64,000 bases of DNA from Escherichia coli (GTDB lineage: Bacteria; Pseudomonadota; Gammaproteobacteria; Enterobacterales; Enterobacteriaceae): NCBI RefSeq assembly GCF_045037415.1, contig NZ_CP173438.1. One strand, written 5' to 3'. This document shows positions 47,901-53,156 of the stretch, piece by piece. Numbering within the stretch: the stretch's first letter is position 1; each line of letters starts with the position of its first letter. Position numbers: made by a program.

Positions 47901-50900
47901 AGGCTTTAACATTTAAAGTTGTACTTTCAATATATAGCATCTTAATAATGGCATACGTCTCCTCTTGTTATGCACAGACGTTGTGGTTATGTTCTGAAGA
48001 AATACTTAAGAGATCCGTCTTTTATTTGTTCGCATTTCTTTGCCTTATTGGCATTATAAGTATTCTTTTACAGAAGACTGAGATTATACATGATAAAAGT
48101 ATGATTCTTTTTCCTGAACCATCAGCATTTGCATTGGTTTTTATACCTATCTTTTCATTTTGTTTATACTATACAAGAGGGGGGGGGCTACTATTGCTCT
48201 ATATATTATCTTTGGGTATTGCGTTAGGTATCCAGAATTTAACAATGTTGGTAGGCATTGTGATTAGTGTTTTTGTGATGAAAAAAATAACTATAAGGCA
48301 AACTATTGTTATACTTTTGGGGGCATGGATTTTTTCCATGATATTAAGTGATTTAGACATTTCTTACTATACATCGCGGCTTGATTTTAAAAATACTACG
48401 AACCTATCAGTGCTTGTATATCTTTCAGGAATTGAAAGAGCTTTCTTGAATTTTATTACAAGTTATGGTCTTGGTATTGGTTTTCAACAAATGGGAGTGA
48501 ATGGGGAGATAGGAATATATCAACAAATTTTAGCTGAACTTGATGCCCCTATGTTAAATATATACGATGGCTCATTTATTTCTTCTAAGTTAATATCTGA
48601 GTTTGGGGTTATTGGTGCATTAATGTGTATTTTCTATTTTTTTTATTTTTCCCGATTTTATCTGCGTTTCAAAAAAAGTAAGAGATATTCACCGCAGTAT
48701 ATTTTAGCATATAGCTTCTACATGTGTTTCTTCATCCCTCTTTTTATACGTGGTGCTGGTTATATAAACCCCTATGTGTTTATGTTATTTTCATCAATAT
48801 TTTTGTGCAAATATCACGCTAAAAATATCTTGATGAAATCTAATGTCCAGATAGCTATATAATAGTAGATTATATTATCATTATCACGTAAATTACATAT
48901 TAATAGCATATATGATAACTAGGACATAAATAATGTGCATTAAAAAAAAACTTAAGTTAATTAAACGATATGGCCTTTATGGTGGTCTTAGGCTTCTTAA
49001 AGATATATTCTTAACAAAATTTTTATTTTGTTCAAATGTTAGGATTATTAGATTTCCATGTTATATTAGAAAAGATGGAAGTGTTAGTTTTGGAAAAGGT
49101 TTTACATCAGGTGTAGGATTACGAGTTGATGCATTTATGGATGCCGTAGTTTCCATTGGAGAAAATGTTCAAATTAATGACTATGTTCACATCGCGGCTA
49201 TTAATAATGTCATTATTGGTAGAGATACATTAATAGCAAGTAAAGTATTTATTAGTGATCATAATCATGGTATTTTTTCTAAATCCGATATCCATAGTTC
49301 ACCAACTATTATTCCTTCGTCTAGGCCCCTTGAATCTGCACCTGTGTATATTGGAGAGCGTGTGTGGATTGGCGAAAATGTGACAATATTACCAGGTGCG
49401 TGTATAGGTAATGGTGTAGTTATTGGCGCAAACAGTGTTGTTCGTGGTGAGATTCCTAATAATGTGATCATTGCTGGTGTTCCAGCTAAAATTGTTAAAA
49501 AATATAACTATGAGCGTATGCAATGGGAAAGAATATAGTTGTAATATCGGCTGTTAATTTTACAACCGGAGGCCCCTTTACCGTACTAAAAAATGTGCTT
49601 ACAGCAACTAAAGATAGAGCCGAATGTAAATTTATTGCACTGGTTCATAGCTCTGCTGAACTAATGGAATTATTTCCGTGGGTTGAATTTATAGAGTATC
49701 CAGAAGTCAAGTCTTCGTGGGTTAAAAGATTATATTTCGAATATATAACTTGCAATAGATTATCTAAGGTGATTAAGGCAACTCATTGGGTATGCTTACA
49801 TGATATTACAGCAAATGTTAGTGTACCCTATAGATTTGTTTATTGCCACAATCCTGCACCGTTCTATAAATATTTAAGCTATCGAGATATTATAGGAGAA
49901 CCTAAATTTTATCTTTTTTATCTTTTTTATGGGCTTTTATACAATATCAATATAAAAAAGAACACAGCAGTTTTTGTTCAGCAGCAGTGGCTAAAAAAAG
50001 AATTCGAAAAAAAATATAAGTTAAAGAATGTTGTTGTTAGTCGCCCTGAAGATATTTGCCCTTTTGAAAGTGATGGTTTGGTAAGAAATAATAATAAAAA
50101 GGATGTGAGGATATTTTACCCAGCAGTGCCCCGTATATTTAAAAACTTTGAAGTTATCATACGTGCTGCACAAATATTACAAGATAAAAATATTCATTTT
50201 TATCTTACTTTTGATGGTACTGAAAATAAGTATGCAAAAAGAATATATAAATTAGCTTCCGAACTGAAAAATGTACATTTCCTCGGTTACCTTAATGCAA
50301 CCGAGATGGTTAACTTTTATCAAGATTCAGATATTATTTGTTTCCCATCGAAACTAGAAACGTGGGGATTACCATTATCAGAAGCTAAAACATACAAAAA
50401 ATGGATATTTGCGGCAGACTTACCTTATGCTCATGAAGTTTTATATAACTATTCAAAAACTAGATATTTTCCATTTGACGATGAGAAAATACTTGTTCGC
50501 TACATATTAGAGTACACAAGTAAAAATATGCATGAAGATATAAAAAATAGTAGGGTGAATTTTAATAATGATGCATTGACTGGTTTTGAACAGTTTATTG
50601 AATATATCCTCAAGGGGAACTGACGTGGTTTATATTATAATCGTTTCACATGGCCATGATGACTATATAGAAAATCTTTTATTAAATTTAAAGTTGCCCT
50701 CTGGAAGATTTAAAATAATAGTTCGTGATAACAAAAGTTCAATGGTTTTAAAAAAAACATGCGAAAAAAATTGCGTAACCTATTTGCATGGAGGGCAATA
50801 TGGATTTGGACATAATAATAACATAGCAGTGTCATATATAATTAATAACTTCATGATTATGAATAATGATTATTTTCTCTTTCTTAACCCCGATGTATTC

Positions 50901-53156
50901 ATAACCAGTGAAAGTTTGATTAATTATGTTGATTATATAATTAGTAATGATTATAAGTTTAGCACATTATGTCTTTATCGAGATTTTACTAAAAGCAAAC
51001 ATGATTATTCAATACGGAGTTTTCCAACTTTATATGATTTTCTTTGTTCTTTTTTATTGGGGGTGAATAAAAGTAAAATTAAGAAGGAAAATATACTTTC
51101 TGATACTGTAGTTGATTGGTGTGCTGGCTCATTTATGCTTATTCATGCTTTAAGTTTCTTAAATGTGAATGGTTTTGATCAAAAATATTTTATGTATTGT
51201 GAAGATATTGACCTTTGTATGCGTTTAAAATTAAGTGGAGTAGATCTTTACTATACTCCCCATTTTGATGCTATTCATTATGCGCAGCATGAAAATAGAA
51301 GAATATTTACTAAAGCATTTCGATGGCATATAAGGAGTATTACGCGCTACATATTACGGAAACCAATTCTTTCTTATAAAAACTATAGAAAAATTACATC
51401 CGAACTGGTAAAGTGATTAAATAAAGTCCTAATTTTACTACTGAAATGGTATCTTTATTTAAAGATCTTTGCTTTATATACCAATTTTTTAACGCCCTGA
51501 CAGGAGTAAACAATGTCAAAGCAACAGATCGGCGTCGTCGGTATGGCAGTGATGGGGCGCAACCTTGCGCTCAACATCGAAAGCCGTGGTTATACCGTCT
51601 CTATTTTCAACCGTTCCCGTGAAAAAACGGAAGAAGTGATTGCCGAAAATCCAGGCAAAAAACTGGTTCCTTACTATACGGTGAAAGAGTTTGTTGAATC
51701 TCTGGAAACGCCTCGTCGCATCCTGTTAATGGTGAAAGCAGGTGCAGGCACGGATGCTGCTATTGATTCCCTTAAGCCGTACCTCGATAAAGGTGACATC
51801 ATCATTGATGGTGGTAACACCTTCTTCCAGGACACTATTCGTCGTAATCGTGAGCTTTCTGCAGAAGGCTTTAACTTCATCGGTACTGGTGTTTCTGGCG
51901 GTGAAGAAGGCGCGCTGAAAGGACCTTCCATTATGCCTGGTGGCCAGAAAGAAGCCTATGAACTGGTTGCGCCGATCCTGACCAAAATCGCCGCAGTGGC
52001 TGAAGACGGGGAGCCATGCGTTACCTATATTGGTGCCGATGGCGCAGGCCACTATGTGAAGATGGTTCACAACGGTATTGAATACGGTGATATGCAGCTG
52101 ATTGCTGAAGCCTATTCTCTGCTTAAAGGTGGCCTGAACCTCACCAACGAAGAACTGGCGCAGACCTTTACCGAGTGGAATAACGGTGAACTGAGCAGCT
52201 ACCTGATTGACATTACCAAAGATATCTTCACCAAAAAAGATGAAGACGGTAACTACCTGGTTGATGTGATTCTGGATGAAGCTGCAAACAAAGGTACGGG
52301 TAAATGGACCAGCCAGAGCGCGCTGGATCTCGGCGAACCGCTGTCGCTGATTACCGAGTCTGTGTTTGCACGTTATATCTCTTCTCTGAAAGATCAGCGC
52401 GTTGCCGCGTCTAAAGTTCTCTCTGGCCCGCAAGCGCAGCGAGCAGGCGACAAAGCTGAGTTTATCGAGAAGGTTCGTCGTGCGCTGTATCTGGGCAAAA
52501 TCGTTTCTTACGCTCAGGGCTTCTCTCAGTTGCGTGCTGCGTCTGAAGAATACAACTGGGATCTGAACTACGGCGAAATCGCGAAGATTTTCCGTGCTGG
52601 CTGCATCATCCGTGCGCAGTTCCTGCAGAAAATCACCGATGCATACGCCGAAAATCCGCAGATCGCTAACCTGCTGCTGGCTCCGTACTTTAAGCAAATC
52701 GCCGATGACTATCAGCAGGCGCTGCGCGATGTCGTTGCTTATGCAGTACAGAACGGTATCCCGGTTCCGACCTTCGCCGCTGCGGTTGCCTATTATGACA
52801 GCTACCGTGCCGCTGTTCTGCCTGCAAACCTGATCCAGGCACAGCGTGACTATTTCGGTGCACATACTTATAAGCGCATCGATAAAGAAGGTGTGTTCCA
52901 TACCGAATGGCTGGATTAATCTGACTTAACTAACAATAAATTGAGGCCCGGCGTATATTGTGCCGGGCTTTTTTTGCCATTTATCTTATAGACTAAATTT
53001 CACTGCTTAATATTAACTTAATAAATATCAGCTATTCTTATAAAGAAATTCTGAATTGTTTTTCGTTGCGTTGACCAGCTATCGACGTAGCGTTAAAACT
53101 TTTAACTCTTGTCAGGATGCTAAAAACATCATGATTCACAGTTAAGTTAATTCTGA

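Follow-up and report, generated by a model that had tools for sequence, protein, structure and literature searches.

We examined a 64,000-nt stretch of Escherichia coli DNA (contig NZ_CP173438.1 of assembly GCF_045037415.1; henceforth, the window) that carries wbbL at 50625..51416 (+), immediately upstream of gnd. The gene is intact and already characterised; it belongs to the O25b O-antigen cluster, known from the pandemic sequence type 131 (ST131) clone, and encodes a family 2 glycosyltransferase (GT2) of 263 amino acids, predicted to be a dTDP-L-rhamnose (Rha):N-acetylglucosamine (GlcNAc)-diphosphate (PP)-undecaprenol (Und) α-1,3-rhamnosyltransferase. The cluster, the structure of its product, the role in serum resistance, and the natural disruptions of O25b wbbL by the insertion sequence (IS) IS1 have all been published previously.

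The open reading frame (ORF) listed at this position spans 50586..51416 (+) and has 276 codons from a TTG, with a GTG at 50625 in the same frame. From this GTG the gene comprises 792 nt, that is, 263 codons plus a TGA stop, exactly the continuous frame that an initial annotation, made from the sequence alone, had described. We prefer GTG 50625 as a credible start because it is separated by one base from the wbbK stop codon, is preceded by a Shine-Dalgarno-like AAGGGG with a 7-nt spacer, is also the start annotated in identical genomes by the Prokaryotic Genome Annotation Pipeline (PGAP)/RefSeq, and lines up with the K-12 wbbL ATG, with matching initial residues, (M)VYIIIVSHGH. We rejected the start at TTG 50586, which overlaps wbbK by 38 nt, has no Shine-Dalgarno-like sequence and adds an extension unmatched in K-12 WbbL. 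The ORF is real, because at the composition of wbbL (28.5% G+C) the chance of 263 codons without a stop is around 6 × 10−11, and open stretches were far shorter both in the remaining five frames (45 codons or fewer) and in 2000 shuffles (134 codons at most). The G+C content is approximately 29–33% over wzx-wbbL and climbs at the junction of wbbL and gnd, from about 29% to about 50%; a low value with a return at gnd is the typical pattern of O-antigen clusters. A scan for promoters and terminators in the wbbL-gnd spacer returned none above shuffle expectation.

The deduced protein is identical to WP_000262536.1 of the O25b:H4 ST131 strain 81009 (CP021179), a published C1-M27 isolate known to express O25b (PMC5823992). 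There were no mismatches with this strain over 24,831 bp (window 38586-63416), and only two positions differed in the upstream 38.6 kb of the window, so that a different ST131 isolate may be the source; both the identity to 81009 and the gene order assign the cluster to the O25b (ST131) type. A megablast search with wbbL produced matches in 426 of 5426 complete E. coli genomes, all of them chromosomal and 424 with at least 99% identity, including 81009 and strains labelled O25b:H4-ST131.

The initial annotation had also stated that the wbbL gene of K-12 is broken by IS5 and had noted no IS-like sequence here, and both statements hold. In NC_000913.3, K-12 wbbL (b4571) is listed as a pseudogene in two fragments around IS5I (the rfb-50 allele), which lies after nt 446 of the gene and is flanked by a TTAA duplication. 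The annotation of 81009, base-identical over this region, contains no mobile element between galF and gnd, and the genes are contiguous. The window thus does not contain an IS-inactivated allele of the rfb-50 kind, its 263-codon ORF being continuous.

For alignment, we rebuilt K-12 WbbL (264 amino acids) by joining its two annotated fragments without IS5I. The homology is full-length, as the designation wbbL-like had anticipated, with 58.7% identity in a global alignment of 264 columns containing a single one-residue gap; the genes are about 65% identical at the DNA level. Identity was likewise 59.6%, over 260 amino acids, to the intact O16 WbbL of strain Ecol_743 (WP_000262539.1), which PGAP names 'N-acetylglucosaminyl-diphospho-decaprenol L-rhamnosyltransferase WbbL'. 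The shared name, the position beside gnd and the length class (263 versus 264 amino acids) would fit a K-12/O16 wbbL in its ancestral uninterrupted state, in a strain making O16. However, the identity to K-12 is too low in both protein and DNA, intact O16 wbbL genes form a separate group with about 66% DNA identity, and the cluster in the window has O25-family wzx and wzy, without glf or wbbI. A K-12 gene minus IS5 is ruled out by the 59% identity, and we consider this explanation refuted, with practically no likelihood left to it. By these comparisons, wbbL in the window is a distinct, diverged O25b allele, and the corresponding antigen is O25b, not O16.

The region from galF to wzzB

Gene coordinates in this region were obtained by shifting the 81009 annotation by 38585. 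The cluster is preceded by galF (39498-40391, from the annotation of the identical 81009 sequence) and by an exact match to the ops element, GGCGGTAG, at 40678..40685 (+), in the JUMPStart region and 79 nt upstream of the start of rfbB. RfaH is expected to be recruited at ops, which would let transcription extend to distal genes, wbbL among them. The window contains six copies of GGCGGTAG versus 1.5 expected; one of them, at 16087-16094, occupies the colanic-acid JUMPStart position about 190 nt upstream of wza, and those at 4445, 5920, 23096 and 28871 fall within genes (yegD, alkA, wcaD and wcaI).

The annotated genes rfbB-rfbD-rfbA-rfbC (40764..44231, +) are for synthesis of dTDP-L-rhamnose, so that the donor for WbbL is supplied from within the same operon. 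RfbB, RfbD and RfbA are 95–96% identical to the K-12 proteins, whereas RfbC (43689-44231) shows 67% identity to K-12 RfbC and 93% to the protein of the O25a cluster. Because RfbC alone diverges, these protein comparisons place a mosaic boundary relative to O16 between rfbA and rfbC.

Downstream lie wzx (44233..45492, +; PGAP annotation), for the O25-family O-unit flippase, 95.5% identical to the O25a protein, and two glycosyltransferase genes. The first of these, wekA (45497..46462, +), encodes a GT2 enzyme 93.1% identical to its O25a counterpart and predicted to form the side-chain α-L-Rha-(1→3)-glucose (Glc) linkage; its match to the NCBIfam 'rhamnosyltransferase' model TIGR01556 is weak and under the cut-off (E = 3.3e-19). 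The second, annotated as wekB (46525..47673, +), encodes a family 4 glycosyltransferase (GT4), 92.9% identical to the O25a protein, with a predicted side-chain β-Glc-(1→6)-Glc linkage that was taken from Table 3 of PMC3789825. These are followed by wzy (47645..48862, +), for the O25b O-antigen polymerase. Its frame is open for 409 codons from TTG 47633, and from the ATG it gives 405 amino acids without internal stops, which equals the length of EC958_2374. In the annotation of 81009, whose sequence is identical here, PGAP marks wzy as 'frameshifted'; the continuous ORF in the window does not bear this out, and the flag is probably an artefact of the reference model. Its recurrence on an O25a genome suggests the same, although in the O25a genome examined the wzy homology truly splits over two frames.

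The 3' part of the cluster starts with wbbJ (48933..49538, +), for a protein 67.5% identical to K-12 WbbJ that scores 293 bits against NCBIfam NF007240 (cut-off 243) and is predicted to be an O-acetyltransferase that adds the 2-O-acetyl group to the backbone rhamnose. The adjacent wbbK-like gene (49523..50623, +) encodes a GT4 enzyme (Pfam Glycos_transf_1, E = 7.7e-19) predicted to form α-D-Glc-(1→3)-L-Rha. This enzyme is 55.4% identical to K-12 WbbK, whereas its identity to the glycosyltransferase at the equivalent place in O25a is only 29%. After wbbL, the conserved right flank begins with gnd (51513..52919, +; ORF and annotation), whose 6-phosphogluconate dehydrogenase is 99.6% identical to the K-12 protein, and continues with ugd (53166-54332) and wzzB (54478-55455), both from annotation. 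All genes of the O25b cluster in the window are intact. At the opposite end of the window, at approximately 349-733, between mdtA and yegL, the identical 81009 annotation has two tandem Ibs-family type I toxin genes of 19 amino acids each.

Predicted step catalysed by WbbL

The O25B repeating unit is →4)-[β-D-Glc-(1→6)]-[α-L-Rha-(1→3)]-α-D-Glc-(1→3)-α-L-Rha2Ac-(1→3)-β-D-GlcNAc-(1→, where Rha2Ac is 2-O-acetylrhamnose; it is about 98% O-acetylated on the 3-linked rhamnose, and shares Glc-Rha2Ac-GlcNAc with the O16 unit of K-12 (PMC8260533). O25a differs from O25b in having N-acetylfucosamine (FucNAc) in place of Rha2Ac, with identical side chains (PMC8260533). In K-12, WecA makes GlcNAc-PP-undecaprenol, WbbL is the second glycosyltransferase, acting on C55-PP-GlcNAc, and WbbK, WbbJ and WbbI follow (PMC10578602).

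We compared these structures with the gene content of the clusters. The wzx, wekA, wekB and wzy proteins are 91–95% identical between the window and O25a, and wekA-wekB occur in 461 genomes, in 36 of which they are about 95% identical and lie in clusters that carry the annotation 'O25 family'. The O25a cluster examined contains neither wbbK nor wbbL and has instead an L-FucNAc module (a glycosyltransferase gene, fnlA, wbjC, wecB, a GT4 gene and wbuC). Since WekA and WekB are common to both clusters, they would make the shared side chains, and since the wbbJ/K/L block is absent from O25a, where FucNAc replaces Rha2Ac, it would make Rha2Ac-GlcNAc and Glc-Rha. Very probably, therefore, WbbL attaches the backbone rhamnose to GlcNAc-PP-Und, the precise acceptor and linkage being predictions. 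The acidic motifs LFLNPD and YFMYCEDIDLC, conserved between this protein and K-12 WbbL, are putatively catalytic.

According to this assignment, RfbBDAC would supply dTDP-L-rhamnose to WbbL, which would transfer L-rhamnose in α-1,3 linkage to the GlcNAc-PP-undecaprenol made by WecA, as the first committed step of O-unit assembly. WbbJ would next acetylate O-2 of this rhamnose, WbbK would add α-Glc-(1→3), and WekA and WekB would add the side-chain Rha and Glc, after which Wzx would flip the O unit, Wzy would polymerise it and WaaL would ligate the polymer to the core.

Mutant phenotypes were available from ST131. The mutant of EC958 in EC958_2371 (wbbL) produces no O-antigen and is sensitive to serum and sodium dodecyl sulphate (SDS), EC958 itself making O25b lipopolysaccharide (LPS) (PMC3789825), a phenotype that is consistent with the proposed role of WbbL although not linkage-specific. 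In the same study, the wbbK homologue and wekB were scored as essential, while the wbbL mutant was obtainable (PMC3789825); this pattern would fit WbbL acting first, since in its absence no lipid-linked intermediate would be stranded at a dead end. Additionally, transposon insertions in WP_000262536.1 sensitised ST131 to colicin (PMC6351738).

Several points weigh against this assignment. Both Pfam GT2 scores only just reach their gathering cut-offs (PF00535, 25.8 bits versus 23.3; PF13641, 27 bits versus 27), and no NCBIfam model names the protein, which has weak local matches to unrelated glycosyltransferase equivalogs, far below their cut-offs; PGAP uses the generic name 'glycosyltransferase' because no WbbL-specific NCBIfam model fires. 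A PDB sequence search with the protein gave no match at E ≤ 0.01. The linkage proposed for the O25b allele relies on homology (59%) and on parsimony among the clusters. Finally, Phan et al. (2013) assigned EC958_2371, in their Table 3, to the side-chain Rha-(1→3)-Glc linkage, assuming the O25a structure (PMC3789825).

From this last assignment, WbbL would make the side-chain α-L-Rha-(1→3)-α-D-Glc and WekA would instead glycosylate GlcNAc-PP-Und. O25b does contain two rhamnoses and the cluster two GT2 enzymes, and sequence alone does not force which enzyme adds which. However, the published table assumed a FucNAc-bearing O25a unit, and Rha2Ac-(1→3)-GlcNAc was subsequently demonstrated in the O25b backbone; we therefore consider it superseded. 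WekA is 93% shared with O25a, which has the side-chain but not the backbone rhamnose and has no WbbL, and the characterised WbbL homologue acts on GlcNAc-PP-Und. Likewise, the wbbL mutant is viable without any O-antigen, whereas the later-acting transferases were scored as essential. We therefore judge a side-chain role to be improbable, and we hold with high confidence that the overall best explanation is an intact O25b wbbL whose product is most likely the first committed rhamnosyltransferase of the O unit.

O-antigen expression and disrupted wbbL alleles

From the uninterrupted frame, the initial annotation had predicted that the locus produces O-antigen. Published carriers of the cluster that express O25b, 81009 (PMC5823992) and EC958 (PMC3789825), support this prediction, with O25b as the antigen and conditional on genes outside the window; this is the phenotype that we infer for the source strain. 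A smooth phenotype requires an intact wbbL but is not guaranteed by it, and it also counts against a straightforward prediction that smoothness depends on wecA, waaL, the core genes and rfaH, all of them outside the window.

The variation among ST131 isolates illustrates this dependence. When 86 ST131 O25b isolates were assayed with an O25b antibody, 66 bound it strongly, 4 weakly and 16 not at all, the lack of binding being due in part to lesions in wzy, wekB and core genes (bioRxiv 10.1101/2020.05.22.110148). In that collection, IS1 interrupted wbbL in three of the 16 non-binders, wbbL was truncated in two more isolates (one non-binding and one weak-binding), and one weak binder carried the change G60E in WbbL (bioRxiv 10.1101/2020.05.22.110148). 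Residue G60 falls in the conserved motif YGFGHNNN.

The source strain could therefore have an intact wbbL and yet be rough, or O-antigen-deficient, through altered expression or a lesion elsewhere (core, waaL, wecA, rfaH). Such a lesion has precedent in the 16 non-binding and four weak-binding isolates, some of them with core-gene lesions outside the region of the window, and the PGAP flag on wzy would point in the same direction. Conversely, the genes from galF to wzzB all match those of the O25b-expressing 81009 exactly, the wzy ORF is continuous and of the EC958 length, the ops element is present, and 66 of the 86 isolates bind the antibody strongly. We thus consider a rough source strain unlikely, and production of O25b LPS remains the preferred prediction.

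Disrupted alleles also occur among the 426 complete genomes with a wbbL match, where our counts are lower bounds. Among the matches listed, at least four genomes have IS1 within wbbL, comprising GN04530 and three others; in GN04530 (L002, 2642-3411) the element is accompanied by a 9-bp duplication equivalent to window positions 50719-50727. In IPCEC42 (L007), a 2-bp insertion after wbbL nt 214 leads to a stop at codon 73. These IS1 and frameshift alleles parallel the IS5 event of K-12.

The pandemic, multidrug-resistant ST131 clone bears O25b as its O-antigen, which is a target of monoclonal antibodies and conjugate vaccines. Loss of wbbL abolishes it most cleanly, and the natural IS1 and frameshift alleles give rise to isolates that escape antibody. 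The intact gene in the window signals only the normal, smooth-type genotype at this locus and no new biology; the value of the analysis is in the correct annotation of the cluster as O25b and not O16.

Comparison with known wbbL genes and with the O16 and O25a clusters

The closest characterised gene is EC958_2371 (PMC3789825), which has the same length (263 amino acids) and a closely similar reported identity to K-12 WbbL, with no detectable difference from wbbL in the window. K-12/O16 WbbL (b4571, P36667), a dTDP-Rha:GlcNAc-PP-Und α-1,3-rhamnosyltransferase, is a full-length homologue, also of family GT2, with the same wbbJ-wbbK-wbbL-gnd position and a common Glc-Rha2Ac-GlcNAc context. The window gene differs from it in having GTG instead of ATG as the start, one residue fewer (263 versus 264) and no IS5. 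The clusters themselves differ in wzx and wzy, and in the presence of wekA and wekB in place of glf and wbbI; in protein comparisons, the wzx, wekA, wekB and wzy products of the window had no counterpart in the K-12 cluster.

With O25a (classical O25; for example, ChlosBP-23-1 or E47a), identity is high for the products of rfbBDAC, wzx, wekA, wekB and wzy (91–97% at the amino-acid level), and the DNA is about 94% identical to the window up to position ~49470; beyond it, O25a has no wbbL or wbbK and contains a glycosyltransferase gene with fnlA-wbjC-wecB, a GT4 gene and wbuC, retaining only a decayed wbbJ. In all of the approximately 35–36 O25a-type genomes, the first 537 nt of wbbJ (window 48933-49470) are kept at about 94% DNA identity, and homology to the window ends at a single shared point, at ~49470, inside the 3' end of wbbJ. 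In the one O25a-type genome that we inspected base by base (L005, 12430-12975), wbbJ lacks an intact ORF and carries two deletions, of 5 bp and 1 bp, together with a 1-bp insertion. The O25A polysaccharide is not O-acetylated (PMC8260533).

The conservation of a truncated wbbJ with one shared breakpoint, decayed in the genome inspected, suggests that O25a derives from an O25b-like ancestor with wbbJKL, whose 3' block was replaced by the L-FucNAc module. At the DNA level, identity between the O25b block and O16 is only about 65%, which would argue against a recent import from O16. The wbbJ-wbbK-wbbL block may thus represent the original 3' end in the O25 cluster lineage, and not a recent O16 acquisition by an O25a background, a proposal that we make tentatively and to which we give somewhat less than even chances.

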